From: Pedosphaera sp.
GTDB taxonomy: Bacteria; Verrucomicrobiota; Verrucomicrobiia; Limisphaerales; SIBH01
Length of the DNA: 21,953 bases
Reading direction: 5' to 3'
NCBI GenBank assembly: GCA_031414955.1
Contig: JANOQV010000153.1
Coordinates: 1-21,953, forward strand
The position numbers and the translations under genes were made by a program. The first letter of the stretch is position 1; every line of letters starts with the position of its first letter. The notes below the pieces were generated by a model that saw nothing but the letters and a program-made list of their open reading frames with translations, was not told the origin of the DNA and did no database searches. Shown one piece after another: positions 1-21,313 of the stretch.

Positions 1-423
1 CACAAAATCCATCACGAGAAAATGCTGCCCGTCGTGAACGCCGACTTCGTGAATGGCGACGATGTTTGGATGATGCAGGCTGCCAGCGGACACGGCCTCC
101 ATTTTGAACCGGCGAATCAAATCGTCGCCCGACAGCGATCCGGAGAGCAACAGCTTCACCGCCACGATGCGGTCGAGACTCTTCTGTCGTGCGCGATAGA
201 CGATGCCCATTCCGCCGCGCGCGATTTCCTCCAGCAGTTCGTAGTCGCCAAAATTCTGGCAGCCGCCGGTGTGAACCGGCGGCACTTCGGCACTGCTGTC
301 GCCGCCGCGATTACCCGCCGCCCTCGGCAGGTCACTCAACGCGCAGTGCGGACACAATCCTGCCGGCACATGGGGCGGAAGCTCGCTTCCGCACTCCGCA
401 CAGCGTTGGACAGAGGCATTCAT
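1..423 (-). CDS. Ser/Thr protein kinase (Hanks type), N-terminal part, with CxxC-x12-CxxC zinc ribbon; runs off the left edge
   Basis: Not in the ORF track. Manual minus-strand translation from ATG 423: [29 protein letters not shown]...[37 protein letters not shown]...[38 protein letters not shown] (Gly-rich loop, VAVK, HPNIV). Confidence 0.95.
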
Positions 424-436
424 TGGTTCTTACCCG

Positions 437-465
437 CTACAGGGACAAACGGCGGCAAAGGTTGC
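437..465 (-). promoter_or_regulatory. Possible ECF-type promoter between the sigma gene and the kinase gene
   Basis: Minus strand reads GCAACC-N17-CTGTAG, ending 13 nt before the kinase ATG; AAC-type -35 and GTA-type -10 geometry. Confidence 0.35.
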
Positions 466-478
466 TCTAATTCTGAAT

Positions 479-1228
479 TCAGCGCGCAAAAATCTGCATC
501 AGGTGCTGGACCTCAGCCTCGACTTCAGCGGGTTCGTCCACCGTTTGCGCGATTTCGTCCCGCAACAACTCACCATAGCGGCGGCGGAAACTATGCACCG
601 TGTTCTTCATGGCCTGTTCCGTCAGGCCGAGCGCCGCGCCAATCTCCGCGTAACTGCGCGCGCCGTGTTCGCCCGGTTGCAAGTCTTTGAGCTGCTCGAA
701 CAGTTCCGACTTGCCGCGCGCCGTGTATTCCTCGCGCAAGCGCCGCGCCGCCTCGTCCATGACCGCGCGCGCCCAGCGCCGGTCGTAGAGTTGATCGGCC
801 GAGAGTCCGTCCACTGGACCAAGCGCATCACGTTCCTCCGCCTCGCAGGCATCGAGAGAAATCAACTGCTGCCCGCCGCCGCGCTTTTGTGCGTTGGCGT
901 GGTCGCGCTGGTCAGAGAGAAAGTGTTTCAGGAACGTGAGCAGGAACGAGCGGAACTTGCCCCGCTGATCCTGCAAGTGGTCCAGCCCGTCCCGATGAAG
1001 AAACCGGCTGAGGAATTCCTGGGTGAGATCCTGCGCGTCATGCGCGCTGTGGCCCTCGCGGCGGAGGAAGTGATAGAGCGGCGGCCAGTAAGTGCGGCAG
1101 AGACGCTCGCGCGCCGCATCCGAGTCCGGCGAATCCTTGTCCCGCGCGCGCAACACCACGCTCCAGTGCGTGGTCACGAAGACGCGTCCGGCCGACTCGG
1201 AGGGAGGTGTTGGTTCCGTGGCAGACAT
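479..1228 (-). CDS. ECF sigma-70 factor of the Ser/Thr-kinase-associated type
   Basis: FVTTHWSVV N-terminus, sigma2 (YWPPLY...DAQDLTQEF...GKFRSFLL), AQKRGGG linker, sigma4 HTH (SYAEIGAALGLTEQAMK); directly upstream of the kinase, no anti-sigma gene nearby. Confidence 0.93.
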   Translation of the reverse strand: MSATEPTPPSESAGRVFVTTHWSVVLRARDKDSPDSDAARERLCRTYWPPLYHFLRREGHSAHDAQDLTQEFLSRFLHRDGLDHLQDQRGKFRSFLLTFLKHFLSDQRDHANAQKRGGGQQLISLDACEAEERDALGPVDGLSADQLYDRRWARAVMDEAARRLREEYTARGKSELFEQLKDLQPGEHGARSYAEIGAALGLTEQAMKNTVHSFRRRYGELLRDEIAQTVDEPAEVEAEVQHLMQIFAR

Positions 1229-7809: not shown

Positions 7810-8403
7810 TTGAACTCCAACAAATACTTCAAGGCCATCGCCGCGATGAGCGAGAACCGTGTCATCGGGGACGGAAACAAAATCCCCTGGCATCTGCCCG
7901 AAGACTTCAAGTGGTTCAAAAAGATGACCACGGGGAACGTGGTGGTGATGGGGCGCAAGACCTTCGAGTCCATCGGCAAGCCCTTGCCCAATCGCAAGAG
8001 CCTGGTTCTGACCCGGCATCCGCAGCGGTTGATCAGCGCCCACCCGGAACTCTTCGGTCATTACCACGAGTGGCGCGGCGGCAAGCATCTCCAGCGCGCC
8101 TACCAGATTCATTTCACCAAGCTGGATGGCAATCCGGCCGATGACATCTTCATCTTTAACTCCCTCGACAAGCTGAACCCCGATGAATTCCCGACGGACA
8201 TCTTCATTTGTGGCGGCGCACAGATTTACGAGCAGACCCTGCCGCGCTGCTCGGACCTCTATCTGACGCGTGTGAAGCGGACCTGCGCCGGCGACGCCTT
8301 CCTTCCGCCGTTCGAAGATTCCTTTGAGCGCCAGGCCATCCTGCGGGACACGCCCGAGTTCGCCATTGAGCACTGGCGGCACAAGAATTTGCTCGCGGAC
8401 TAG
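7810..8403 (+). CDS. folA: Dihydrofolate reductase with internal insertion
   Basis: [66 protein letters not shown] start. Confidence 0.95.
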
Positions 8404-8418
8404 GCGACCGGTGCCGGC

Positions 8419-8970
8419 ATGGAAACATCCTCCGCCATGAATCACACCGTCGAGCCAGCCTGGTTCTGTTTGCGCAGCCAGGTGCGGCACGAGGCCGGGG
8501 CGGCGGCCCGACTGCGCCTGGAGGGCATCGAGGTGTTTCTGCCCCGCATCCGGTTCAAGCGCGCCACTGTGCGCGGTCCGGTCTGGGTGACGGAGGCGCT
8601 GTTCCCCGGCTATCTCTTCGCCCGGTTCGACTGGGTCGCGTCGCAACGACTGGTCCGGCACGCCCCGGGCGTGAGCACCATCGTGAGCTTCGGGCCGCAT
8701 GTGCCGAGCGTGCCGGCGGAGGTGATCGCCGCCCTGCGCACGACCATTGGCGCCCAGGAATTGCATGAGATTTCGCACGAGATGATTCCTGGCGACGCGG
8801 TGCAAATCTCGGGCGGGGTGCTGCACGGACTTTCGGCGGTCGTGACCCAGGTTCTGCCTGCGCGGGAACGAGTGCGGGTCTTGCTGGAGTTTCTGGGGCA
8901 GCAAACCAGTGTGGAAGTGGAGGCCTCAGCCGTGGTGGCGCAGGCCCAGCCTCGGCGCGGGATTCTTTAA
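8419..8970 (+). CDS. RfaH-like NusG-paralog transcription antiterminator
   Basis: NGN domain (WFCLRSQVRHE...EVFLP...ALFPGYLFARF) and KOW domain (PGDAVQISGGVLHGLSAVV...RVRVLLEFLG). The start could be 8437. Confidence 0.88.
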   Translation: METSSAMNHTVEPAWFCLRSQVRHEAGAAARLRLEGIEVFLPRIRFKRATVRGPVWVTEALFPGYLFARFDWVASQRLVRHAPGVSTIVSFGPHVPSVPAEVIAALRTTIGAQELHEISHEMIPGDAVQISGGVLHGLSAVVTQVLPARERVRVLLEFLGQQTSVEVEASAVVAQAQPRRGIL

Positions 8971-9104: not shown

Positions 9105-11153
9105 CTATGGTCCCATCCGCGTGGATTCTCTCGCCAGGGCGGCATCCAATTCCACGAGCGCGGCGCGCATTTCAGTTACGCAGGCATACCGCAAACTCCG
9201 GTCGGGATGGCAGGCCTTGAAAATGATCGGACTCAGGCGGATGAAATCCGGGTGGCGGTTCCGATCCACGAGGGTGGTGGAGATTTCCGGGAAGGCCGCC
9301 GGTTTGTTCCCGGTGGTGATGACATAAAGCATCATGCCCAGACCATAGATGTCCGCCTGCGGTGTGCCGGGCGGCTCCGGATCAGGAGGCATGAACCCCG
9401 GCGTGCCCACCAGGCTGATCTCCTGCGCGGACCGGTAGGAATCTGTCACCAGCCCGACGTCGGCGAGCTTGGGCAGTCCGTTCACGAAGATGATGTTGCG
9501 CGGCTTGATGTCGCGGTGCGCGAGTCCTTGCTCGTGCAGGAACTGCAACGGCTCGCAAAGCTGCGCGCAGATGCGCAGGCACTCGCGCGCCGGCAAGCGG
9601 CCGCCGTGGGCCGCACACTTGGTCGCGAGATCAAGCGGCTGATACGGGATGGACTTCCTCTCCCAGTCCGGATCGGACGCGTCGCCCAGTTCCATGGCGT
9701 AATAGAAATAGCCCTGCGGTTTCATCCGGCTCACGAAGTCGATGCGCAACAGGCCGGGGTGCTTGTCGGCCACGCGCTTGTAATGCTCAATGCCGCGAAA
9801 CTCGCGTTCGTAGGGGGAAAGATCGCCCTCGAACTTCGCGCGGAAAATCATCTTGATGGCCTGCCATTGGCCGACGGCATTCCGCGCCAGCCACACCTGG
9901 CCGTAGGCACCTTTGCCGAAGGGCGGCTGGACCAGTTCGTAATCTGGCACTTCCACCGGTGCCTCTAGGGCGGGCACGGGGTGGGCGTGATCTCCCACCG
10001 CAGGCACCATGATCGTGCTTACGCGCGTGAACCCGGCGGCACGGCGACGCCATAACGCGAAGCCCAGCGCCAGCGGCACCTGGCCTCCGGCAATGATCAG
10101 CCACGGGAACCAGAAGTTACTGAAATAGGACAGGCTGGCCGCCCCGATCAAAACCAGCAACGCCGCTCCCGTGGCCAGGAGGCAGGCTGTCACCCGGCCC
10201 GTTCGCACGAGCCTTCCCAGCCCCAGGCCCGTGAGCAGCAGCAGCAGCCCTTCCGCCCACCACGGCGCGCGGCGAAGCCAGTCCTGATGCAGGAGATTCA
10301 GAAACTCGGTGGCCAGGATTTCCACCCCGCCCACCGCCCCCCTTGTCCCGGTGAAAGGCGTGGAGAACTCGTCGTGCTCGCCATTGGGCCGGTCGTCGGC
10401 CGGCTCGCTGCCAATGAAGACCATCTTGTCCCGGAAGAACCCCGCCGGTTGTTTCTTGGCCGTGAAATAACTGAGGTTGGTCCAGGCCCAGTCCGGCGCG
10501 TAGTAACGGATCCAGCGCTCCTTCGGCTGATTGCCCAAGCGCGCGCCGGCTCTTTGTGCCGCGACCCAGGCCAGGCTGTCGTAATTGCCCGGCGAGGGAA
10601 ACCGCCAGTGCTGTCGCACCACTCCGTCGCGATTCGTGGCCACGCTGCCCACGCCGTAATTCGTGGCCCCGACGGCCTGGATGAACAACTCCAGCGGCGG
10701 CAGCGGGCGGGCACTGGAGATTCCCGGCTGGTCGGGCTTGGGGGCGACGTATTCATTCGTCTGCTTGGCCATCAAGACCACGTTTGACATCCGTCGCAGG
10801 GCTGCGGCCAGCGCCAGGTCGTCGTCGGGACGGCCCGCCTGGCGGAAGAAGACATCGAAAACCACCAGCGGGCAGCCATCGGCGGCCAGCCGTTCCAGGA
10901 GCCGGGTGTGCGGCTTTCGATCCAGGGCGGACTCGCGGCTCTGTCCCGTGCGGGTGTAGAAATCTTCGTCCAGGCGGATGAGAACCACGCTGCTGGTGAT
11001 CGCGCGGGTGCCGAAGTGGCAGAGGGAGTCGTAGCTCGCGTTGCGCCATGGTTCACCCACGTCCAGGAACCAGAGCGCCAGCCCGAGGATCGCCGCCAGC
11101 CCGCCTGTGATCCAGGGCCGCCGATTTCGGGTGTTGAGTGGGGTGTCGCTCAA
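9105..11153 (-). CDS. CHASE2-domain membrane Ser/Thr protein kinase, about 682 aa
   Basis: N-terminal TM, CHASE2 (VVLIRLDED, LVVFDVFF, DDDLALAAAL, DGVVR, FRDKMVFIG, DEFSTP, GVEILATEFLNLL), 3 TMs, then kinase (FGKGAYGQVW, AIK, HRDIKPRN, LADVGL, GTPGFMPP, ADIYGLG). Start placed at TTG 11153 because the track start overlaps the divergent lipoprotein gene. Confidence 0.9.
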   Translation of the reverse strand: MSDTPLNTRNRRPWITGGLAAILGLALWFLDVGEPWRNASYDSLCHFGTRAITSSVVLIRLDEDFYTRTGQSRESALDRKPHTRLLERLAADGCPLVVFDVFFRQAGRPDDDLALAAALRRMSNVVLMAKQTNEYVAPKPDQPGISSARPLPPLELFIQAVGATNYGVGSVATNRDGVVRQHWRFPSPGNYDSLAWVAAQRAGARLGNQPKERWIRYYAPDWAWTNLSYFTAKKQPAGFFRDKMVFIGSEPADDRPNGEHDEFSTPFTGTRGAVGGVEILATEFLNLLHQDWLRRAPWWAEGLLLLLTGLGLGRLVRTGRVTACLLATGAALLVLIGAASLSYFSNFWFPWLIIAGGQVPLALGFALWRRRAAGFTRVSTIMVPAVGDHAHPVPALEAPVEVPDYELVQPPFGKGAYGQVWLARNAVGQWQAIKMIFRAKFEGDLSPYEREFRGIEHYKRVADKHPGLLRIDFVSRMKPQGYFYYAMELGDASDPDWERKSIPYQPLDLATKCAAHGGRLPARECLRICAQLCEPLQFLHEQGLAHRDIKPRNIIFVNGLPKLADVGLVTDSYRSAQEISLVGTPGFMPPDPEPPGTPQADIYGLGMMLYVITTGNKPAAFPEISTTLVDRNRHPDFIRLSPIIFKACHPDRSLRYACVTEMRAALVELDAALARESTRMGP

Positions 11154-11307
11154 AGTGACCGCGCGGTGATGCCGCAAATTTTCCAAATTTTTGCGCTTTA
11201 CCCCGCGCCGGCACAAGTGGCAAACACGGGTCGAACAGCAACCGCTTCGGGCATCCGGGAACGCAGCCAGCCAAGTCCCAGGGCCGGGGCAAAACAAAAC
11301 AAAGCCG

Positions 11308-12108
11308 ATGAAAACAAAATTCCTCTCCCAACTGTTTGTGCCCCTGATGGTCGTCGTGTTGGTGGGATGCGTCCACGACAAGCCCCCCGGCCCCGCCGCG
11401 GCGAAAGTCGGGATAAAGTCCGCGTGGCCCAAGCCAGACAAGGGCGTGAAGGTCTATTCCCATCCCGAGGATCAGGTGGTGCATAGCAACGAGGTGGCGT
11501 GTTTCACGGTGTTGGCCGATCCGGATGACACGAAGAAACACAAATCACTCGCCTACCAGTGGTTGAGAGATGAAGTCCCTCTGACCAATGATATCCGGAT
11601 CAGTGGGGTCACCAATGCCACGCTGGTTCTCAGCAATGTGACGCTTTCCGACATAGCCTTCTACTCCTGTAAAGTCTCCACCGTGGATGACACGGGAAAG
11701 CTAGGCCCGGCGGTGAATGTGACCAGCGTGGATCGGGAATTTCCGGGCGCACAACTGTTTGTCTTTGTCGGAACCAACACCACCTACAGCGGTCCTTATG
11801 CGTCCGGCACCGGCACCAAGCCCTGCGTGGGCAGCTATCTTGGGAAGACGACGTTCAAGTCAACAACCACGAGCACCTGGTTTTCCCGCCCCAGCGGGAC
11901 TACCCAATGCACCGCCACGTATATTCCTGGAACCAATACGTGCGGCGTCATGATTCAGGTGGTTGATACGGCACTTTGGAGCAGGTGCGGCTCGGAGGCG
12001 ATTACCTTCACCACCAAAGCACCGCCGACCTACAAGTATCAATTCACCGCCTACGTCACAAACGGCCCGGTGCCGGCGACGCTCACGCTTGACCTTAACT
12101 GGTTCTGA
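11308..12108 (+). CDS. Lipoprotein with immunoglobulin-like domain and Cys/Thr-rich C-terminal beta domain, 266 aa
   Basis: MKTKFLSQLFVPLMVVVLVG-C21 lipobox; Ig motif YQWLRD...ISGVTNATLVLSNVTLSDIAFYSCKV. Confidence 0.85.
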   Translation: MKTKFLSQLFVPLMVVVLVGCVHDKPPGPAAAKVGIKSAWPKPDKGVKVYSHPEDQVVHSNEVACFTVLADPDDTKKHKSLAYQWLRDEVPLTNDIRISGVTNATLVLSNVTLSDIAFYSCKVSTVDDTGKLGPAVNVTSVDREFPGAQLFVFVGTNTTYSGPYASGTGTKPCVGSYLGKTTFKSTTTSTWFSRPSGTTQCTATYIPGTNTCGVMIQVVDTALWSRCGSEAITFTTKAPPTYKYQFTAYVTNGPVPATLTLDLNWF

Positions 12109-12123
12109 GGAAGGAATTCCGGA

Positions 12124-15100
12124 TCAGAAATCAAACTGGAGGCGGGCCAGGAATGTCCTCTCCCGGGGGAGCGCTTGATGATAATTGAGCGGGTTCAAGT
12201 GGTAGTTTTGGTCAGTCAGGTTTAGCATACCCACCGTCAGTTGCATTTTGCGTCGCGGAAACCTGTAGCCCGCAAACACATCGAATTGCCACAACTCGGT
12301 GTCCGGCCGGGTGCCTGAGTATCCGCCGTTCTGCTGCCCGTGCCAGCGTGTTTGAAACTGGCCGAAGAAACCGCTGGGATGATTGTAGATGACGTGAAGT
12401 TTCAAGTCATGCAGCAGCGCGGACTGGCGTTGGCGGGCATGAAAAGGAGCATAGGTCGCCGTGGTCGGCGTCACTTCGGGAAATTCATCCTCGAGCGTGG
12501 CCTCACTCAGTCGATAGCGCGCGCCGAAGACCCACTCGTCCGCGACCAATTGATCCAAGCTGACCAGCAACGATCGCTCCTCATAGTCCAGATTTTCCCG
12601 GATGCGGGAGGGGAAGACAAAGTCGCTCACGGACACGTCCAGGGTGTAAGCACCGAAATGTCGCGGCACTTTGGAGTTCAGCCATTGACCGGCCAGGCCG
12701 AAATACGTCTCGGTCGCCAACCGCTGTTCCCATGAAAATGAGTAGGTCTCGAACTGGGCTCCAGCATTGGCTCCAGCGATGGCCTCCGGAATCAGGCTGC
12801 GGAAAGATTGGTTGATTCCCGCGACGTGGGTCGGCTCGAGACTCAGTCCCTGATCAACACCTGCACCGCCCAGGGATTGCGTGTAGGCGGCTCGCACCGC
12901 CGAGCCGGCCGTGGGGCTCCAGACCAATCCGGCCTTGGGCAGAATTTTGTCGATCTTTTTTTCGCGTTCGGAGAACGGCGTGGCGCGAAAGTTCTCCGGG
13001 TAGCGAAGCCAGTCGTAACTGATCCCACCGACCAGCAGCAAGTGGTCGCCCAGGTGGAGGCTCTCGTAGCCATAAACACTCCAGCGCTCGAAACCGACCC
13101 GGATGTCCTGGAAGGTGCCTTGCTCGGAAAAAATACCGACGAGATCGGACGGGTTCACATTGGCGTTTTGGATCCGGAAATTACCCGACTGAAACCTTCC
13201 GCCGATCACCGCGCTTTGGAGCGGCGTCTGCCAAATTTGCTGCGCTTCCGCCGTGTAAAGTTCAAGCCGGGTGCGCGAGAATTGCTCAATGTTGACCGGA
13301 CGGACGCCAAGCAGATTGCCGGCTGATACTCCTTTGATGATGATATACGCCTGTGGATCGGCCACCTGGTAGGTGTCATCGAAACGGCCGCCGAGCAGGA
13401 GCGTGTGGGAACCGGGCGCCCATTCGCGGTGATAGCCCAGGGCCAGCGTTGGCTCCTGCGTTTCACGTGTGCGCAGTTTCAAGTTTGGGCCACCCTGGTC
13501 ATACCTGAGTTCGGGATCGTAGCGTGGGGAACGATCCCCTCCCTCCACCTCGTCGGTGCCCACCCGGAAATACAGGCTGTCCTGCCTGGTGAGGGCCTGT
13601 TTCAAATGCAGGCGGAGTTCAGTCTCTTCAACATCTCCGTTCCGCTCCTGTCCGGCGTCTGAGCGGTACAGCCCCTCCAGCAGGAAGGCGCTGTTTTGAT
13701 ACGTGGCATGCACCGCTCCTTGCTCGGTCCAAGTGCCACGGCTGAGGTATTCCGCCGACGCAGTCACGCCGACGCGGTCTTTCTCAAACAGGCGCGAGTA
13801 CTCCTGCTGGGAAACGCTTTGGGCGAGCAATCCGCCGCCCACGGGAGCCAGCAGATTGGCAATCAGATACTCGCTCTCGGCTACCGAGTCGTAGCGGAGG
13901 TTGATGCGGTTTGGATCGCGCATCGCATCGTAGCTGTTGGCCAGGAACAGGTGGGCGGCGTGGTTGCCGTAATCCGCGCTCACCGCCCGCCCAGCTTCGC
14001 TCAGACTCCACTCGGTCAAGCCCGCGTCGCCGTAGATGCGGGCGAGGTTGGCGCTTTGCACGGCTTCATCCTGATCCAGCAGGAACCGGGACCGGTAAAC
14101 ACTGCGGTTGTCATTCAACGCCTGGGCTTGCTCCAGATCACGGATGGCCTCGTTGATGCGGTTGTGGTCGGCCTTCAGGAGTGCGGAGTAAAGCCAGACG
14201 GTTGGATCTTTTTCATCGAGTCCCTGGGCCAGTTCGAGTTCATGCAAAGCGCGAACTTTGTTGCCAGCGTCCCCAAAGGCCTTGCCCAGATAGCTGCGCA
14301 GTTGGGCGCGGCGTGGCTCGAGCGAGGCGGCGATGAGCAGGTCTTCACGACCGCCGGCCGCGTCGCCCCGGCGGATGCGGCAGAGGCCGCGGCCCAGCCA
14401 GGCGTTGCCCAGGGCGGCGTCGAGGGTGATGGCCTCGTCAAAGCGTGCGGTGGCCTCGCGCGGCTGGTTCTGCGCGGCGAGCAGGAATCCTTGCAATGCC
14501 ACGGCCTGGGCGTTGCGGGGCGCGACGGCCAGGCTTTGCTCCAGCGCGGCGCTGGCTTGGGCGGTGCGGCCGAAGCTGAACTCGAGCTCGGCCACACGCG
14601 CGGAGGCGAATCCAAACAACGGCGAGTTCGTCGCCGCACGTTTTGCGAAATCCAAAGCGCGATTCAGGGTCGCGTCACCGCCGGCGCGAGATTGTTCGTA
14701 GTAGGAGGCGGCCAGTAATTCGGTGGTCAGCTCCGGCGGGCCGGAGGGCAGAGCGGATTCGAGTCGGACGGCTGCGATCTGTCGTCGCAACGCGGAGGCG
14801 AGCCGCCGCCCGCGCTCCGAGGCGTTGGCTTGTTCGATTTGCCCAAGCGCCGCCTCCGCCTGTTCCACCTCGCCGACCGAGAGCAGCAGGGCCGCTTGAT
14901 AAACTCGTTCGGCCTCGGATCCCGGCTGGCGCAGGCCATAAGCCGCCAGTGCCGCCAGCAGGTCGCCCTGGCGATAGGCGGCGAGTGATGGCGCGAGGGC
15001 CGTTTGCTCGGCGGGCGTGAACGGGAGTTCTCCCGGATCGAGCACGGCCGGATAATAAAGCGCCCATTGCAACAGGTTGTTGGCCAAGAACCCGGCCGTG

Positions 15101-15678
15101 CGCGCCGGGGCCGCGCCTGGTGCGGCCACGGCTTGCTGGCCATTAGTCAGGGGCAACGCGCCCAAGGCGTTGGTGAAACGAACCACACCGTCGATCACCG
15201 AGATGGTGGTGCCGGGCGGCTCCCCCGCCACATCGACGGCGATGACGAATTCCGTTCCCTCCACACCGGCATCGGCATCCCGGCTCGTGGCTCGCGTGCT
15301 TCCCGGATCGCCGCGATGAACAAAGGAAAGGATGCCCTTGAAGATATGCAGGCCGGGCTGCGCGCGGGGCCGGGCCAGCGGTAGAATTTCCACTTCCGAC
15401 TGGGCGCGCATCCTCCAAGTGGTGTTGTCCGCCCAGCGCAGCGTGGCCCGGCTGCTCGGGCCGGTGCGGAGCCGGTCGCCGACCCGCACCACCTGGTCCG
15501 TTTGCGTGCGAATCCAGCGGGCGCCGCGATCGGTGGAGATTTCCATCGTGCCCTGGAGTTGGACCACGCGAATCTCGCCGGCACCTTCCTGGGCCTGGGC
15601 CGTGGGCGGGACCAGCGCGAGCCACGCGGTGACGGAGAGCAGCGTCCACCAAGCAGGTCTCTGAAGAAATAGGTGCAT
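12124..15678 (-). CDS. FecR-domain / TPR / TonB-receptor-like beta-barrel outer-membrane protein (NsrA-like architecture), about 1184 aa
   Basis: Signal peptide (...TAQA), FecR motifs (VRVGDRLRTGPSSRATL, AGVEGTEF, ISVIDGVVRF), TPR helices (PRNAQAVALQGFLL, AWLGRGL, LRSYLGKA), amphipathic beta strands, terminal NLTDQNY...ARLQFDF with C-terminal Phe. Start uncertain (several upstream ATGs). Confidence 0.9.
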   Translation of the reverse strand: MHLFLQRPAWWTLLSVTAWLALVPPTAQAQEGAGEIRVVQLQGTMEISTDRGARWIRTQTDQVVRVGDRLRTGPSSRATLRWADNTTWRMRAQSEVEILPLARPRAQPGLHIFKGILSFVHRGDPGSTRATSRDADAGVEGTEFVIAVDVAGEPPGTTISVIDGVVRFTNALGALPLTNGQQAVAAPGAAPARTAGFLANNLLQWALYYPAVLDPGELPFTPAEQTALAPSLAAYRQGDLLAALAAYGLRQPGSEAERVYQAALLLSVGEVEQAEAALGQIEQANASERGRRLASALRRQIAAVRLESALPSGPPELTTELLAASYYEQSRAGGDATLNRALDFAKRAATNSPLFGFASARVAELEFSFGRTAQASAALEQSLAVAPRNAQAVALQGFLLAAQNQPREATARFDEAITLDAALGNAWLGRGLCRIRRGDAAGGREDLLIAASLEPRRAQLRSYLGKAFGDAGNKVRALHELELAQGLDEKDPTVWLYSALLKADHNRINEAIRDLEQAQALNDNRSVYRSRFLLDQDEAVQSANLARIYGDAGLTEWSLSEAGRAVSADYGNHAAHLFLANSYDAMRDPNRINLRYDSVAESEYLIANLLAPVGGGLLAQSVSQQEYSRLFEKDRVGVTASAEYLSRGTWTEQGAVHATYQNSAFLLEGLYRSDAGQERNGDVEETELRLHLKQALTRQDSLYFRVGTDEVEGGDRSPRYDPELRYDQGGPNLKLRTRETQEPTLALGYHREWAPGSHTLLLGGRFDDTYQVADPQAYIIIKGVSAGNLLGVRPVNIEQFSRTRLELYTAEAQQIWQTPLQSAVIGGRFQSGNFRIQNANVNPSDLVGIFSEQGTFQDIRVGFERWSVYGYESLHLGDHLLLVGGISYDWLRYPENFRATPFSEREKKIDKILPKAGLVWSPTAGSAVRAAYTQSLGGAGVDQGLSLEPTHVAGINQSFRSLIPEAIAGANAGAQFETYSFSWEQRLATETYFGLAGQWLNSKVPRHFGAYTLDVSVSDFVFPSRIRENLDYEERSLLVSLDQLVADEWVFGARYRLSEATLEDEFPEVTPTTATYAPFHARQRQSALLHDLKLHVIYNHPSGFFGQFQTRWHGQQNGGYSGTRPDTELWQFDVFAGYRFPRRKMQLTVGMLNLTDQNYHLNPLNYHQALPRERTFLARLQFDF

Positions 15679-15788
15679 AGGAATTACCCCAAGATTCATC
15701 CGCTTCGACATATTGGTACCAAATGCTCTCATTCCTGGGCAAGGCTGCCGGCGGACGATCCTCGCGCGACCCAACTCACCCAAGATCA

Positions 15789-15816
15789 ATACGGGGAACA
15801 CCGCCAAATCTTTCAC
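15789..15816 (-). promoter_or_regulatory. ECF-type promoter candidate facing the outer-membrane receptor gene
   Basis: Minus strand GTGAAAGATTT-GGCGGTGTTCCC-CGTAT; same boxes and spacing as the plus-strand copy at 15850. Confidence 0.7.
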
Positions 15817-15849
15817 CAAAAATTTCCTTCCATAAAATGTGGAGCCGTC

Positions 15850-15877
15850 GTGAAAGATTTTCCCCCGGCCTCCGTAT
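15850..15877 (+). promoter_or_regulatory. ECF-type promoter candidate facing the small ORF and ECF sigma gene
   Basis: GTGAAAGATTT-TCCCCCGGCCTC-CGTAT; twin of the minus-strand motif 33 nt away. Confidence 0.7.
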
Positions 15878-15910
15878 GGTTAGCAGAGGGCCAGGACTCT
15901 CGAAGACAAC

Positions 15911-16087
15911 ATGACCACGATCGAAACATCGGGTTCCCGCCGCGCAGCGCGCCGTCTGGCGCTGCAACCGACTCCCACCCCGCACGTCCTGGAACGATCA
16001 CGCGCCGCCACCACGCTCACTCCCGCCCAGGCGATCCAGGTGGCGGCGCGCGCCTTCTCCCGCCGGGGGCATCCGGCGGAGAACTGA
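15911..16087 (+). CDS. Putative small Thr/Ser-rich protein, 58 aa
   Basis: MTTIETSGSRRAARRLALQPTPTPHVLERSRAATTLTPAQAIQVAARAFSRRGHPAEN*. First in-range ATG after the promoter motif, purine-rich leader, fills the gap before the sigma gene; absent from the ORF track (shorter than any ORF listed). Confidence 0.45.
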   Translation: MTTIETSGSRRAARRLALQPTPTPHVLERSRAATTLTPAQAIQVAARAFSRRGHPAEN

Positions 16088-16143
16088 CTTGGAAGCCGGG
16101 GTCCGACGGGCTATCAAGGCGGCGGCGGAAATTCTCCGCCGGA

Positions 16144-16773
16144 ATGCGAGGCCAAGCTGAAGAAATAATTCCAACCCGCGCGAGCCTGCTGCTGCGCCTG
16201 AAGGACTGGCGCGATCAGGCGAGCTGGCAGAAATTTTTCGACACTTACTGGCAGTTGATCTACGGCGTGGCCCGCCAGGCCGGTCTCAATGAAACGGAGG
16301 CGCAGGATGTGGTTCAGGAAACCATGCTGGCCGTGGCCAAGCACCTTCCCGGATTCACCTACAATGCCGAGGGCAGCTTCAAGGCCTGGCTGCTCAACAT
16401 GACCCGCTGGCGGATCGTCGATGAAATCCGCCAACGGCCCAAAGCCGACCTGGCCGAATTGGCGGAGCGCGCCGAGGGCGACGGTCCCACCCAGACCCCC
16501 GACTCAGGAATCGACCCGGCGGGCAGCGCGCTGGACACCTTGTGGGAGGCCGAATGGAAGGACGCTCTTTTGAACGCCGCCGTGGCCAGCGTGAAACGCC
16601 GCGTCGAGCCGCGCACTTATCAACTGTTTGATTTCTATGCCAACAAGGACTGGCCGGTGGAGAAAGTCGCTTTGACCTTTGCGGTGTCCGTGGATCAAGT
16701 CTATCTCGCCAAGCATCGCGTCACCGCCCTGCTCAAAGCCGAGGTCGCCCGGCTGGAACGCGAGGCCATTTAG
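16144..16773 (+). CDS. ECF sigma-70 factor of the Ser/Thr-kinase-associated type, 209 aa
   Basis: PTRASLLLRLKD, SWQKFFDTYWQLIY, EAQDVVQET, GSFKAWLLNMTRWRIVD, WEAEW, sigma4 (VEKVALTFAVSVDQVYLAKHRV). ATG 16144 is the likely start, not 15673. Confidence 0.92.
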   Translation: MRGQAEEIIPTRASLLLRLKDWRDQASWQKFFDTYWQLIYGVARQAGLNETEAQDVVQETMLAVAKHLPGFTYNAEGSFKAWLLNMTRWRIVDEIRQRPKADLAELAERAEGDGPTQTPDSGIDPAGSALDTLWEAEWKDALLNAAVASVKRRVEPRTYQLFDFYANKDWPVEKVALTFAVSVDQVYLAKHRVTALLKAEVARLEREAI

Positions 16774-17335
16774 CGCAACTCCACCAGCTCACGGCCAGTC
16801 CGCCAATGACTCCGCCCGCGTGGCACGCAGCCACCGGCACGCCCATCAGTCCGAAATGCAGGAAGGCCAGCGCGACATCGCCCGTGGCGGCCTCGAAGGC
16901 GGCCTTGGCGACCACCACTACGAGCGCGCACCAGCCCGCCCGGCGTTCCCACTGTGCGCCGCTCCGGATCATTTCCACGGCCGAGATCGCCATCAATCCA
17001 TGCGCGACGCCGGACAGTCCGCCGTAGCCTTTTGAGTAAACGACGGACGAAGTGAGCGCGGCCAGCAAACTGCCCAGCGCGCTCGCGGCCACGGCAACCA
17101 GCCTGCGCCGCGAGGACCAGTCCCGCAGTTCCGCGTAGAGCATGAAGAACGCGGCCCCATCGAGCAGCAGGTGGTACCAGGAGACATGGACGAACGGATG
17201 CGTGACCACGCGCCACCACTGGCCTTGGGCCACACGCTTGGGGAAGAAGGCAAACTGTGCGCTCCACGCACCGTGGAACAGCGGCGCGTTCACGAGGGCG
17301 AGAATCACCGCGAAGAGGAGGAGTTCAATCCGCAC
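16733..17335 (-). CDS. rrtA: Rhombosortase (rhomboid-family intramembrane serine protease)
   Basis: GQWWRVVTHPFVHVSWYHLLLD, YGGLSGVAHG (catalytic Ser), K..FE, VAACHAGGVIGG (catalytic His); directly downstream of a GlyGly-CTERM gene. Start is GTG 17335 or GTG 17464; 3' end overlaps the convergent ECF gene by 41 nt. Confidence 0.85.
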   Translation of the reverse strand: MRIELLLFAVILALVNAPLFHGAWSAQFAFFPKRVAQGQWWRVVTHPFVHVSWYHLLLDGAAFFMLYAELRDWSSRRRLVAVAASALGSLLAALTSSVVYSKGYGGLSGVAHGLMAISAVEMIRSGAQWERRAGWCALVVVVAKAAFEAATGDVALAFLHFGLMGVPVAACHAGGVIGGLAVSWWSCAKWPRVPAGRPRL

Positions 17336-17350
17336 CGATGCGCCCTTTCG

Positions 17351-17421
17351 CGGAGCGCCGGACTCCGACCCGGCCGAGTCGCGCGCCGGCTCCACACGCC
17401 GGGTCGGAGACTGGCGCTCCG
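17351..17421. repeat. REP-like palindromic element
   Basis: CGGAGCGCCGGACTCCGACCCGGC (17351-17374) and GCCGGGTCGGAGACTGGCGCTCCG (17398-17421), 22/24 complementary, 23-nt loop. Confidence 0.75.
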
Positions 17422-17472
17422 TTGGAACCGAGCCGGCGAACTGAGTCGTGCGGGTTATCGGCACAAAGCGTG

Positions 17473-17505
17473 GGCCGGGATGGCAGCAACGCCGCCATCC
17501 CGGCC
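17473..17505 (-). terminator. Strong intercistronic stem-loop after the VIT-vWA stop codon (leaky terminator or mRNA stabiliser)
   Basis: Perfect 12-bp stem GGCCGGGATGGC/GCCATCCCGGCC, extendable to 15 bp with one G-U on the minus-strand RNA; 11 nt after the stop; only a weak U tract. Confidence 0.6.
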
Positions 17506-17516
17506 ATTGAGGTTGG

Positions 17517-19619
17517 TTACTGTTTGCGGCGTGAAGAGCGGAACACTCGCATCGCCGCGATCAGGCCGAGCATCAACGGGCCAACCGGTCCGGAGCCGCC
17601 GCCGCCGAAGTTGAAGTCCACACTCCGACTGGGTGAACTGGATGAAGGGGCAGGTGCGGGCGTCGCGCTGCGCTGCGCCGGTGTTGAGGGCGTGCCGGGC
17701 GCAAACGTCTGCGTCGGAGTCGCCGAGGCGAGCTTCATCTCCTTCGCCTGCGGCCCGAGGTCGGCCACGGCCTTGCCGCGGATCTTCTCGAACTCCACGC
17801 GCACCACCTCCTGCGCCTTCCGGTCCCGGTCGCTGCGCAGCACGTTGTTGCGCGCGATTTTCCAGCGTTGGAACTCGGCGTCGTTCTCCAGCACGAGGAA
17901 CGAGGTGTATTCGGTCACGATGGAATACGCCTCGCCGAGGCGCACGATCTCGGGAGCCACGCTCTCGCGACTGCCCGCGCGGTCGGCGTCCTTGAGCAGC
18001 GCGTCGATGCGATGCCAGGCCCACATGCGCTCCAGTTCCGGGTTGGCGGATTCGTTCTTCGGGAACTCCAGTTGCGCCGTCTTCTTGAACTCCATCCCGT
18101 TGATGCTGCCGCGAATTTTCACGTCCGCCACCCCGCCACTTTTGTAGCGGCCATAGACGCGCACCGGCGTGCCGTGAAACAGATTCGGCAGGGTCTTCGG
18201 TTCCAACTCGCTGACCTCGATCCCGGCGAGCTCGAACTTCAAATCCGACGCCACCGGGCGCGTGAGCTTGCGGCGGAACGCCTTGGCCTGGCGGGCGAAG
18301 TTGTCATCGGGCGAAAGAAACGCGGCCAGCCCGCCCGAATCCTGCGCCATCTGCTCGAGCAACGGGCGGTTCACGTCGTTGCCCACGCCGATGCAGAAGA
18401 CGCGCGCGCTGCGCGGCCGTTCGCCGATCAGTTGCAGCAAGGTCCGGCGCTCCTGTTGCTCGGTGAGTCCGTCGCTGAAGATAATGACGTTCAACGGACG
18501 ATCGGCGCTGGCGTATTTGTAAGCAGTCGTCACGGCGGGATTCAGCACCGTGCCTCCGCGCGCCTGCTGCGAGGAAAGAAACGCCTGCGCTGCTTCCTTG
18601 GTTTGCGCATGGGCGGCGCGCAGTTCCTTGAAGGCCAGGTTCGGCTGCACGTTAAAGGTGATGATCTCGACACGATCCTGTTCGCCCAGTTCGTTGATGA
18701 ACGAGCCGATGGAATCCTTCGAGAGCAGCAGCTTGCCGTCCTGAGCCATGCTGCCGGAGATATCGAGCAGGAACACGTAGTCCATGCCGGTGTCGAGCTT
18801 GGCCAGGTCTTCGCCCGCCGTGAGGGTGAGCGAGAAGTAACCGTCCTCACCGGCGCGCTTCGTCGCCACGAGATCGAATCCAGTTTTCGGCCGCGCCAGT
18901 TGATACGAGATCACGATGTCGCGGGCGAGGCTGCCCTCCTTCGTCTCCAGGCTGGCCTGGTGCAGCGTGTCGGTGTGTTTCGCCACCACGAAGTCCTTCG
19001 CGTGACTCGGGCTTTCCACGAGGCTGAGCGGGATGGCCGACTTCACCTCGACGTTGAAGGCAAAGCGCCCGGTGGTCCTGGAGTCCAGCCCCTTCCGCGT
19101 CGCCGTCGCGAGCGGATAAACGTAGGTGGCCGTGTCGTGGTCCACGTCGAGTTCCTGATAGTAGGTGAGCTGGACCTTCTGATCCGCGTTCGGCGCGATG
19201 GGAAAAATGCGCATCTCGAAGGTCTTGAAATCCACCTGCTCCAGCAGGCCCGGATCCCGGCGCGTCTGTTTGTAGCTCTCGTAGATTTCCCGGGCGCGCT
19301 TCTTCTCCAGGACTTCGCCCACCATCTCCTTGCCGTTGATCCACATGGTGAAGTTCGCCACCGACGCGCCCTTGGGCACCGGGAAGGTGTAGAGCGCCTC
19401 GACCTGCCGGCTCTCGGTGTTGTGGAAGACCTGGGTGATCTTCGTCACTGCGATGCCGTTGTTGATGGTGACCTGCACGTCGTGCTCCTTCACTTCGAGC
19501 ACGCCGCCGAATCCGCCGTCCGCGATGAGCAATCCGGCGGCCCGTGTGGACGGAGCCACCAGCACGCCGACGGCGAGGAGCGCCGCGGCCAGTGTCTTTC
19601 GAATCATTCCAAGTTTCAT
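17517..19619 (-). CDS. VIT + von Willebrand A domain surface protein with GlyGly-CTERM sorting signal, 700 aa
   Basis: Signal peptide; VIT (TQVFHN...EALYTFPVPKGASVANFTMWING); vWA MIDAS (FLLDISGSM, GGT, IFSDG); Pro/Ser/Thr linker; tail NFGGGGSGPVGPLMLGLIAAMRVFRSSRRKQ. Confidence 0.92.
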   Translation of the reverse strand: MKLGMIRKTLAAALLAVGVLVAPSTRAAGLLIADGGFGGVLEVKEHDVQVTINNGIAVTKITQVFHNTESRQVEALYTFPVPKGASVANFTMWINGKEMVGEVLEKKRAREIYESYKQTRRDPGLLEQVDFKTFEMRIFPIAPNADQKVQLTYYQELDVDHDTATYVYPLATATRKGLDSRTTGRFAFNVEVKSAIPLSLVESPSHAKDFVVAKHTDTLHQASLETKEGSLARDIVISYQLARPKTGFDLVATKRAGEDGYFSLTLTAGEDLAKLDTGMDYVFLLDISGSMAQDGKLLLSKDSIGSFINELGEQDRVEIITFNVQPNLAFKELRAAHAQTKEAAQAFLSSQQARGGTVLNPAVTTAYKYASADRPLNVIIFSDGLTEQQERRTLLQLIGERPRSARVFCIGVGNDVNRPLLEQMAQDSGGLAAFLSPDDNFARQAKAFRRKLTRPVASDLKFELAGIEVSELEPKTLPNLFHGTPVRVYGRYKSGGVADVKIRGSINGMEFKKTAQLEFPKNESANPELERMWAWHRIDALLKDADRAGSRESVAPEIVRLGEAYSIVTEYTSFLVLENDAEFQRWKIARNNVLRSDRDRKAQEVVRVEFEKIRGKAVADLGPQAKEMKLASATPTQTFAPGTPSTPAQRSATPAPAPSSSSPSRSVDFNFGGGGSGPVGPLMLGLIAAMRVFRSSRRKQ

Positions 19620-19669
19620 AATTTCTCGTTTGCAGGCGGCTGGTTGATTCCAGCGCGCCGCAAAACACA

Positions 19670-19686
19670 TCCACATCTCGTGCCAA
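19670..19686 (-). promoter_or_regulatory. sigma54 (-24/-12) promoter candidate for the VIT-vWA/rhombosortase operon
   Basis: TTGGCACGAGATGTGGA vs consensus YTGGCACGrNNNTTGCW: perfect -24 box, deviant -12 (GTGGA); 50 nt upstream of ATG; divergent sigma54 activator next door. Confidence 0.65.
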
Positions 19687-19778
19687 GCCAGCGTTTGCGG
19701 CCCGGCGCTCGGAATCGCGACCAAAACCAGGGGAATCAGAGGTGGAAGCCGTTGCCAGGAAAAGCTGGGCGGAACAGC

Positions 19779-19809
19779 CATCGACATTTTATGCCGATGC
19801 TGACAGCAT
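19779..19809. promoter_or_regulatory. Overlapping palindromes; candidate enhancer (UAS) sites for the sigma54 activator
   Basis: CATCGACAT-TTT-ATGCCGATG (8/9) at 19779-19799 and perfect ATGCTG-A-CAGCAT at 19797-19809, about 95-125 nt upstream of the -24 box. Confidence 0.5.
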
Positions 19810-19816
19810 TAATTGC

Positions 19817-21313
19817 ATGGCAACTAACCTGACCGCCACCGAGCGGCAATTCTTCCGGGAAGTCTCGGCGGCGGCTTTTGCCAATCCCTTCAGCTCGCAG
19901 CGTCTGGAACTCGACCGGAAGATTGCCGGCACCAGCCTGGGCGAGCCGGAACGCATTCACCGGCTCCGGGATGCGGTCAGTTCACGGGTGGCCAAGCTGG
20001 AACAGTCGGGCCGCGCCCATTTGAAGCACTACGGCGGTGAGGAAGCCCTCGTGATGCGCAACGTGTTTCTCTTCGAGTGTTACCACTGCCAGTGCGATGC
20101 CCTGGACGAGTTGATCGAGGATCAACTCAAGGCCGGCGACCAGCCCTGCGCCGTGCGGTTCGGGCGCGAGGCGCTCGGCCAGCTCGCGCAGCGCGGTTTT
20201 GCCGAGGAGGAGGCGTTGCGGTTCTTCGGCATCTTCTTCCAACTGCGCCGCGCGTATCACTTCATCATCCATGGACTGACCGGCGACAGCGCCTCAATGC
20301 ACGAACTGCGGCGTCATCTCTGGAACAACGTCTTCACCCACGAGATTCGCTGGTACGAACGCCACCTCTGGAACCGGCTCGAAGATTTCTCCACGCTGCT
20401 GCTCGGCGAAACCGGCACCGGCAAGGGCACCGCCGCCGCCGCCATCGGCCGCGCCGGGTTCATTCCCTTCGATGCGGGGCGCAACCGCTTCGTCGAGAGC
20501 TTCACGCGCAGCTTCGTCTCGCTGAACCTCTCGCAATTTCCCGAGACGCTCATCGAGTCCGAGCTGTTTGGCCACAAGCGCGGCGCCTTCACCGGCGCGG
20601 TCGAGGCCCACGAAGGCGCGCTCGCGCGGTGCAGCACGCATGGCTCGATCTTCCTCGATGAGATTGGCGACGCCTCGGTGCCGGTGCAGATCAAGCTGCT
20701 CCAGGTGTTGCAGGAGCGGACATTTTCCCCCGTGGGCGGCCACGACAAATTGCGCTTTCGCGGACGCGTGATCGCCGCGACCAACCATCCCCTCGAACGG
20801 CTCCGCGCCGAGAAGCTGTTCCGCGATGATTTCTTCTACCGGCTCTGCTCCGACGTCATCACCCTGCCGCCGTTGCGCCAGCGGCTGCGCGAATCACCGG
20901 GCGAACTGGACGCGCTGCTCCAAAGCGTGATCGAGCGCATGACCGGCGGCACGGCGATCGAGCTGGTGGAGTTTGTGCGCGAGCGGTTGCTCAAGTCGGT
21001 TGGGCGGGACTACGACTGGCCCGGCAACGTGCGCGAACTGGAACAGGCCCTCCGCCGCATTCTCGTGACCGGAAGCTACGAGCCGCAACGGGTTCATTCC
21101 CACGACGCCCTCTCCGCTCTGCCGCAACGCATCCGTGCAGGAAACATCGACGCGGATGAACTGCTCGCGACCTTTTGCGCGGCGCTTCACGAGCGCTTCG
21201 GCACCTTCGAGGAAGTCGCGCGTCGGGCCAACCTCGACGCCCGCACCGTGAAGCGTTACCTCGCGCAGCATGGCGAACGGAAAGGCGGGACCGCACCGGC
21301 GCGTGCCGGCTAG
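19817..21313 (+). CDS. sigma54-dependent transcriptional activator (bEBP AAA+) with unrecognised N-terminal domain, 498 aa
   Basis: Walker A GETGTGKG, ESELFGHKRGAFTGA, IFLDEIG, QIKLLQVLQE, RVIAATN, FRDDFFYRL, YDWPGNVRELE, C-terminal HTH (FEEVARRANLDARTVKRY). Confidence 0.95.
   Translation: MATNLTATERQFFREVSAAAFANPFSSQRLELDRKIAGTSLGEPERIHRLRDAVSSRVAKLEQSGRAHLKHYGGEEALVMRNVFLFECYHCQCDALDELIEDQLKAGDQPCAVRFGREALGQLAQRGFAEEEALRFFGIFFQLRRAYHFIIHGLTGDSASMHELRRHLWNNVFTHEIRWYERHLWNRLEDFSTLLLGETGTGKGTAAAAIGRAGFIPFDAGRNRFVESFTRSFVSLNLSQFPETLIESELFGHKRGAFTGAVEAHEGALARCSTHGSIFLDEIGDASVPVQIKLLQVLQERTFSPVGGHDKLRFRGRVIAATNHPLERLRAEKLFRDDFFYRLCSDVITLPPLRQRLRESPGELDALLQSVIERMTGGTAIELVEFVRERLLKSVGRDYDWPGNVRELEQALRRILVTGSYEPQRVHSHDALSALPQRIRAGNIDADELLATFCAALHERFGTFEEVARRANLDARTVKRYLAQHGERKGGTAPARAG

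Follow-up and report, generated by a model that had tools for sequence, protein, structure and literature searches.

We describe a four-gene locus (positions 9105-16773) on contig JANOQV010000153.1 of Pedosphaera sp., a member of the Verrucomicrobiota; the window analysed here is the whole stretch of 21,953 nucleotides in which the locus lies. It encodes an inner-membrane Ser/Thr kinase with a periplasmic CHASE2 domain, a secreted immunoglobulin (Ig)-domain protein, an outer-membrane receptor resembling NsrA, and an extracytoplasmic function (ECF) sigma factor, and it is a real, conserved and uncharacterised module. As judged from the sequences, the module joins an NsrA-CHASE2 input to a kinase-ECF output, each half of which is known elsewhere. 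We have good confidence that receptor, kinase and ECF form a functional triad, and favour, less firmly, the reading that they constitute a three-protein trans-envelope relay, running from receptor to kinase to sigma without an anti-sigma factor. The features concerned are the following.

9105..11153, minus strand: inner-membrane receptor kinase, built as transmembrane helix, periplasmic CHASE2, three transmembrane helices and cytoplasmic Hanks-type (HRD) Ser/Thr kinase (Pfam, motifs, hydropathy, model)
11308..12108, plus strand: secreted protein with an Ig domain and an unnamed C-terminal domain containing Cys (sub-threshold Pfam Ig_3; 13-member family)
12124..15678, minus strand: NsrA-like outer-membrane protein with signal peptide, FecR domain, tetratricopeptide repeat (TPR) solenoid, 22-strand TonB-transporter-like barrel and terminal Phe (Pfam, model, Foldseek, HHalign)
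15253..15258, minus strand: codons of G141-T142, the unchanged Gly-Thr of the FecR domain (alignment of FecR domains)
15789..15816, minus strand: predicted ECF promoter GTGAAAGATTT-N11-CCGTAT toward the receptor gene (inverted repeat I1; top score in the 6.5-Mb genome)
15850..15877, plus strand: second predicted copy, GTGAAAGATTT-N11-CCGTAT, toward the ECF gene (inverted repeat; rank 4 in the genome)
16144..16773, plus strand: ECF sigma of a kinase-associated clade (clade A), 209 amino acids, no extension (Pfam, alignment, NCBIfam)

The cluster had been proposed in a first-pass annotation made from the DNA letters alone, and all four genes were recovered from the list of open reading frames (ORFs), the translations and Pfam. 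The same order (ECF divergent from the receptor, Ig protein opposed, kinase) was found in six other loci, by which measure the clustering exceeds chance, and in five more without a detected Ig gene. Since the strands alternate from kinase to ECF (minus, plus, minus, plus), the four genes are not one operon; the receptor and kinase genes lie 1 kb apart on the same strand.

Components of the locus

The receptor comprises 1184 amino acids, with a Pfam FecR domain (residues 68-167) and a TonB-receptor barrel. Its AlphaFold model (82 sequences, pLDDT 90, pTM 0.88) shows a FecR domain rich in beta strands, a TPR region made of helices and a barrel of 22 strands. Helices rather than a mixed sheet precede the barrel, and the top Foldseek matches of the barrel are TonB-dependent transporters (E ~1e-15, TM ~0.5 to the target). 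The first-pass annotation had placed the FecR domain on a barrel protein, and Pfam, hydropathy and the model agree that it is fused to the TPR region and barrel without a transmembrane segment. No match to a plug, STN, FecR_C or anti-sigma family was found in the receptor with Pfam (cut-off E 0.01 for plug and STN). With a signal peptide ahead of it, no transmembrane helix and no anti-sigma match, the FecR domain should therefore be periplasmic and unable to hold the sigma.

The proposed likeness to NsrA was also borne out, as near-full-length homology. HHalign of the receptor profile with the gene directly upstream of Sinorhizobium meliloti cyaK, a FecR-domain gene which by its position we take to be NsrA (SMb20775), gave 99.7% (E 3.6e-26, 983 columns). 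Identity between the two proteins is only ~20%, and profile comparison was needed because tblastn of the single receptor protein against plasmids gave no match. A CHASE2-cyclase paralogue in this genome matches S. meliloti CyaK (31% identity, E 1e-50). The Gly-Thr of the FecR domain is unchanged in 65/65 FecR domains and aligns, weakly but motif-exactly (probability 9%, E 0.0036), with G181-T182 of Escherichia coli FecR, described as its self-cleavage site in PMC12036975.

The kinase (682 amino acids from a likely TTG start, a length equalled by the protein database calls) matches CHASE2 (E 2.8e-29) and Pkinase (E 3.8e-23) in Pfam. One helix precedes CHASE2 and three follow it in the model (pLDDT 92.7; hydropathy gives three segments), which places the kinase domain in the cytoplasm. 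The Gly-rich loop, Lys-Glu pair, HRDxKxxN, DxG and P+1 loop of Hanks-type kinases are all present, the catalytic motifs are unchanged in 12/12 aligned homologues, and the closest PDB matches are PknB and StkP. For CHASE2, no solved relative was found by sequence and no structural match at Z of at least 8, which does not imply a new fold. The top homologue in the protein database is from a Verrucomicrobia bacterium. The CHASE2-kinase fusion was found in 86/401 genomes of this order (a few of them partial matches) and in 4/401 genomes sampled phylum-wide, these including the present genome and one more of the same order; by these counts it is nearly confined to one order of Verrucomicrobiota. 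A contig search with the single kinase returned eight distant loci, one of which (Syntrophorhabdaceae) is a pair of FecR-TPR-barrel and CHASE2-cyclase.

The sigma factor matches Pfam Sigma70_r2 and not Sigma70_ECF, and NCBIfam places it at superfamily level only. It shares the trait of kinase-associated ECF groups, a membrane Ser/Thr kinase nearby and no anti-sigma gene; as the first-pass annotation had stated, no anti-sigma family was matched among the 17 window proteins scanned with Pfam. Region 2.2 retains an acidic E-A-Q-D (E in 24/28 and D in 25/28 members of clade A). EcfP is reported to carry STTA at this site; no such motif was found in the present ECF, and an EcfP-type phosphosite was rejected. 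A different element stands in the first helix, where T11-R12-x-S/T14 is unchanged in clade A and T-x-x-S/T occurs in 28/28 ECFs of clade A and 22/22 of a second clade (clade B). Within this genome, the motif was read by eye in 22/22 kinase-adjacent ECFs with a visible N-terminus and in 0/26 other ECF rows, several of which have no aligned N-terminus; many ordinary ECFs of the genome have S/T-D-x-x-L at this position. We regard T11 and S14 as candidate phosphosites, whose phosphorylation would restore the negative charge found in ordinary ECFs. This genome holds about 25 clade-B ECFs, mostly beside kinases, and two kinase-adjacent ECF genes (L006:6961-7710, in G000:C47, and G000:C98 11376-12206) seem to be split into two ORFs.

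In a kinase tree (FastTree, midpoint root), all CHASE2 kinases join a WD40 kinase paired with a clade-A ECF, apart from the kinases paired with clade B, from which the receptor-CHASE2 module would seem to have taken over the kinase of a pre-existing kinase-ECF pair.

The Ig protein has 266 amino acids and an Ig_3 match (E 2.4e-5) short of the curated Pfam cut-off; an Atlas search with its C-terminal part returned unnamed clusters only (best 0.86). It had been called a lipoprotein. A lipobox-like LVG-C can indeed be read by eye in the protein of this genome, but its homologues mostly carry a plain signal peptide without a lipobox (also by eye), so that the Ig gene stands while the lipoprotein label does not extend to most of the family.

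Conservation, co-divergence and promoters

Neighbourhoods were compared within a radius of 7 kb at 80 more kinase loci, taken from the best-scoring rows of the kinase-match list (weakest rows omitted), and at about 60 added loci picked by kinase, CHASE2 or receptor matches in 61 relatives, all annotated with our own profiles; loci with at least 5 kb on each side are termed well-flanked. Around 94 CHASE2-kinase genes a receptor was present in 52, an ECF in 41, both in 30 and neither in 31, the ECFs dividing into 23 of clade A, like that of the window, and 18 of clade B, two of which (L056, L121) adjoin other kinases and may be incidental. The well-flanked kinases number 49 (receptor 31, ECF 31, both 24). 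No ECF was found beside 26 CHASE2-cyclases or seven other CHASE2 proteins (among them two hybrid histidine kinases, one CHASE2-TIR protein and one split kinase), even at low threshold; the receptor count at the cyclase loci is by construction, because those loci were mostly chosen by receptor. Across 43 receptor-chosen loci, an ECF was present in 3/3 with a kinase, 0/19 with a cyclase, 0/4 with another CHASE2 protein and 4/17 without CHASE2. The present genome follows the same pattern: each of its four receptors adjoins a CHASE2 protein, and the two with kinase output (the window and C12, the latter co-directional in the order receptor, kinase, ECF) have an ECF, whereas the two with cyclase output (C305, C137) have none. 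On the evidence of these loci, a receptor-CHASE2 pair comes with an ECF solely where its CHASE2 protein signals through a Ser/Thr kinase domain.

All of ten genomes with a kinase lacking a nearby receptor or clade-A ECF still hold both elsewhere, in five of them as a divergent pair less than 400 nt apart, one such pair lying 1.04 Mb from the kinase. Failure of the genes to be conserved together had been named in advance as grounds for giving up the proposed system; receptor, CHASE2-kinase and ECF instead co-occur widely.

The receptor family is also found in other arrangements. In L100:738-8138 and L095:9227-15614, receptors stand directly behind WD40 Ser/Thr kinases with no CHASE2 gene (a clade-B ECF is present in L100), a second way of wiring a receptor to a kinase. 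Other CHASE2 outputs include a TIR domain (L102:8470-10125), a cyclase-CHASE2-kinase triple fusion (L056:8037-10925) and hybrid histidine kinases (L074, L081). Tandem receptor genes (L073:10221-17226) and genomes with nine receptor matches (G292, G016) attest to a strong expansion of the family.

Co-divergence was analysed in 60 receptor-CHASE2 pairs. Pairwise distances of the FecR domain correlate with those of CHASE2 (rho 0.59) better than do those of the TPR region (0.38) or the barrel (0.31), length-matched windows giving 0.29-0.36 for TPR and 0.17-0.32 for the barrel. The lead of FecR is kept in 99-100% of subsamples and also when the window's clade is left out, and the FecR domain follows its own barrel (rho 0.23) less closely than it follows the CHASE2 of its partner. 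This co-divergence is a hint in support of contact between the two domains. A complex prediction of FecR domain and CHASE2 gave no verdict (score 0.00) and is not used as evidence.

The gap between the receptor and ECF genes holds two copies of a putative promoter, back to back as an inverted pair. Their spacing and CGTA box are typical of ECF promoters. A relaxed form of the pattern occurs 23 times (two being the window seeds) in 24 loci with kinase and clade-A ECF (437 kb), 14 times in 51 kinase loci without an ECF, once in 18 clade-B loci and not at all in 26 cyclase loci (392 kb). A matrix trained on 40 sites from other genomes puts the two window sites in first and fourth place in the 6.5-Mb genome, a ranking that is partly circular, because the pattern was seeded on these same two sites, and to that extent a point against the assignment; six sites reach at least 22 bits, against none with the reversed matrix. 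Exact sites in 61 genomes number 111 versus 52 for controls, which we take as independent support, and the exact motif lies within 650 nt upstream of 7/79 clade-A ECF genes (matched by eye), five of these in loci unused before. The genes behind the sites across genomes are ECFs, receptors, members of the Ig-protein family, receiver/PAS-kinase genes and large secreted proteins; in this genome the sites also precede two AraC-like helix-turn-helix ORFs (labelled by eye) and a membrane protein.

Taken together, the motif is very probably the promoter of this sigma, and the second copy predicts autoregulation of the ECF gene. With the motif upstream of 7/13 members of its family (the window's own not included), the Ig protein appears to be downstream of the sigma, of which it is a probable target in relatives, and not a component of the relay. 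Scans of the gap between the kinase and Ig-protein genes in the window and of the C12 operon gave nothing over background, and a gapped-word search upstream of eight clade-B-linked receptors yielded no common promoter.

Several sites deserve separate mention. The short AraC-like ORFs follow top-scoring sites at G000:C61 near 6757 and G000:C132 near 47314, and a site in C30 abuts the ATG, as in a leaderless transcript. The paralogous clade-A ECF loci L004 (8174, 4418) and L005 (6209, 9504) have the same -35 with other -10 boxes, before the ECF or kinase and a neighbouring large secreted protein, which suggests insulated promoters. In L114 (8818, 8658) and L125 (10993, 11286), two sites directly behind the kinase are followed by a conserved ORF of about 60 amino acids with two cysteines, and at several further kinase loci a site occupies the corresponding position with no clear ORF behind it, possibly marking small RNAs or peptides.

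A proposed relay and its rivals

We propose that the barrel is altered by a cue at the cell surface (probably a macromolecule, as has been suggested for NsrA), upon which the periplasmic TPR-FecR arm would engage the CHASE2 domain and the kinase would be turned on. The kinase would then phosphorylate the ECF; the likeliest targets are T11 and S14, positions that are acidic in this genome's ordinary ECFs. The sigma would in turn transcribe from TGAAAGA(T/A)-N14/15-CGTA promoters its own gene, the receptor gene (a positive feedback), some regulator genes and, in many relatives, the gene of the Ig protein. Of the two individual steps, phosphorylation of the sigma by the kinase itself seems the likelier outcome; direct contact between FecR domain and CHASE2 is favoured by a narrower margin over its absence. 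If the relay is true, it would be a route from surface to transcription that dispenses with second messengers and anti-sigma proteolysis alike, and a common one within a single order of Verrucomicrobiota. Its receptor-CHASE2 family supplies dozens of FecR/CHASE2 pairs and suggests that the partner of CHASE2 is a protein rather than a small ligand. As a promoter can be predicted for this kinase-linked ECF and two of its residues are candidates for phosphorylation, kinase, sigma and reporter could be rebuilt in a laboratory strain.

A number of observations weigh against the relay as drawn. The linkage of the triad genes is loose: both receptor and ECF are missing from the 7 kb around 11/49 well-flanked kinases, 17/43 receptor loci have no CHASE2 gene nearby, and the genomes are related, so that the counts are not independent. 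One genome (G042, 96% complete) has the receptor, the Ig protein and a window-type kinase, followed by a canonical ECF, and no clade-A ECF by profile search. A nearest-neighbour test gave no preference for FecR (28, against 30 for TPR and 29 for the barrel, of 60), and across 21 triads the ECF follows FecR (0.78) no less closely than it follows the kinase (0.63), so that co-divergence does not single out the kinase-sigma step. Because the acidic region-2.2 motif is retained, the proven mechanism of EcfP is not transferable, and T-x-x-S/T may be a mere helix cap inherited by two related clades. As to the promoter, 72/79 related ECF genes have no exact upstream site, the window's own kinase and Ig genes have none (best 3.2 bits), and separation at genome level is poor (34 genomes with clade A hold 76 sites against 31 for controls, and 27 genomes lacking it hold 35 against 21).

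The strongest rival, which we consider unlikely though not negligible, holds that kinase and sigma are the signalling unit, with CHASE2 sensing a periplasmic ligand of its own, and that the receptor is mainly an output, serving as an export, assembly or anchoring barrel for the neighbouring large secreted Ig/repeat proteins. TPR plus barrel is the build of export proteins such as PgaA and Slam, the receptor gene carries the sigma's predicted promoter, and receptor-ECF linkage persists where the kinase has moved away; large secreted Ig/RCC1/GEVED proteins moreover flank many receptors, including some without a CHASE2 neighbour. Against such an output role, receptors pair alike with cyclase, histidine-kinase and Ser/Thr-kinase CHASE2 proteins, co-divergence with CHASE2 is stronger for FecR than for the barrel, although it is the barrel end that usually adjoins the CHASE2 gene, and the homologue NsrA is reported to be required for CyaK-dependent signal perception (PMC7529298).

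Less probable again is a relay that is real as far as the kinase, whose target is then not the ECF but RNA polymerase, a response regulator or an anti-sigma encoded at an unlinked site, the ECF being controlled indirectly or by transcription alone. The retained acidic core-binding motif of the sigma would fit, as would the frequent promoter sites before regulator genes and the fact that one kinase clade adjoins two ECF clades and, in G042, a canonical ECF. Against it stand the first-helix motif, present in all 22 kinase-adjacent ECFs of this genome and in none of 26 others (several without an aligned N-terminus), and the precedent of direct phosphorylation, which published accounts give as proven for EcfP and proposed for five more kinase-linked groups.

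Classical FecA-FecR-FecI-type control, or a chance cluster, is very improbable: the Pfam FecR domain with its conserved Gly-Thr, a barrel fold like that of TonB-dependent transducers and the published interpretation of ECF267 in these terms (PMC7826278) speak for the former, but the topology described above keeps the cytoplasm out of the FecR domain's reach, which led us to reject that domain as an anti-sigma, and the same receptor family has no ECF at 26 cyclase-type loci, so that topology and the contingency of ECF on kinase largely refute it, while conserved gene order speaks against chance.

The three-protein relay can also be set against systems in print. Genetic support exists for NsrA acting with CyaK/CyaD in S. 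meliloti (PMC7529298, PMC13001267), and the likeness of input is close: NsrA-CyaK (CyaD1/D2)-Clr has a homologous FecR-TPR-barrel protein of about 1190 amino acids directly upstream of its CHASE2 transducer, and the window likewise has an adjacent CHASE2 inner-membrane transducer with three transmembrane helices. The output differs, being a class III cyclase, cAMP and Clr there and a Hanks kinase with an ECF sigma here. On the output side, EcfP/PknT, EcfK/PknS (ECF43) and the predicted groups ECF59, 61, 62, 217 and 283 share an ECF without anti-sigma beside a membrane Ser/Thr kinase (PMC7826278). ECF43 sigmas, the only ones given a demonstrated phosphosite in the reviews consulted, have replaced DAED by an uncharged S/T motif and match Sigma70_ECF, in contrast to E-A-Q-D and Sigma70_r2 in the window sigma. 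What sets the window apart from all these groups is a kinase with CHASE2 at its N-terminus, its link to an outer-membrane receptor, and the conserved promoter found here; the groups are moreover described as planctomycetal, proteobacterial or actinobacterial.

Other partial likenesses exist. ECF267 (Sorangium, Chondromyces) has an ECF with a FecR-TPR protein and protein kinases nearby, but in its account in PMC7826278 there is no outer-membrane transporter, no conserved promoter is reported and CHASE2 has 0 occurrences in the part of the supplement covered. As described in PMC5192318 and PMC9239204, clusters in the Burkholderiales place a LysM-FecR protein beside a CHASE2 histidine kinase, and clusters in the Campylobacterota contain a FecR outer-membrane protein, a TPR protein and a CHASE2 cyclase; their output is two-component or cAMP, with neither Ser/Thr kinase nor ECF in these accounts. 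FecA-FecR-FecI shares the 22-strand barrel, the FecR domain with its Gly-Thr self-cleavage motif, the ECF output and probably a receptor within the sigma's regulon. There, however, FecR crosses the inner membrane once and has its anti-sigma domain in the cytoplasm, whereas the window carries its FecR domain on an outer-membrane protein with no anti-sigma domain and no Pfam plug match, and interposes a kinase. The module thus resembles NsrA-CyaK in its input and kinase-activated ECFs in its output, yet belongs with neither, since it has no cyclase and no STTA site, nor with FecA-FecR-FecI.

A literature search, mostly of open-access papers, found no description of the receptor-CHASE2-kinase-ECF combination; PMC8195603 mentions CHASE2 and ECF in an unrelated system. 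The first-pass statement that no characterised system with this combination was known stands for the whole, but not for its parts, as FecR beside CHASE2 and FecR-TPR with kinase and ECF (ECF267) are already in print. A broader reading can be offered only tentatively and is, in our estimate, doubtful: a self-cleaving FecR arm on a barrel would dock onto CHASE2 as a general protein-protein relay whose output can be exchanged (cyclase, histidine kinase, TIR, Ser/Thr kinase). Where that output is a Ser/Thr kinase, phosphorylation of a new first-helix site, T11/S14, distinct from that of EcfP, would switch the sigma on, with no anti-sigma and perhaps no TonB.

Other genes in the window

At one end of the window (1-1228, minus strand), a clade-B ECF (479-1228) precedes a Ser/Thr kinase gene that is truncated where the contig ends. 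At the other (16733-21313) lie genes for a rhomboid protein, a VIT-vWA protein ending in a Gly-rich linker, a hydrophobic helix and a basic tail, and a divergent sigma-54 activator; the arrangement resembles a rhombosortase with its substrate. Ahead of the kinase end of the locus (7810-8970, plus strand) are a dihydrofolate reductase with an internal insertion and then a NusG/RfaH-like protein.

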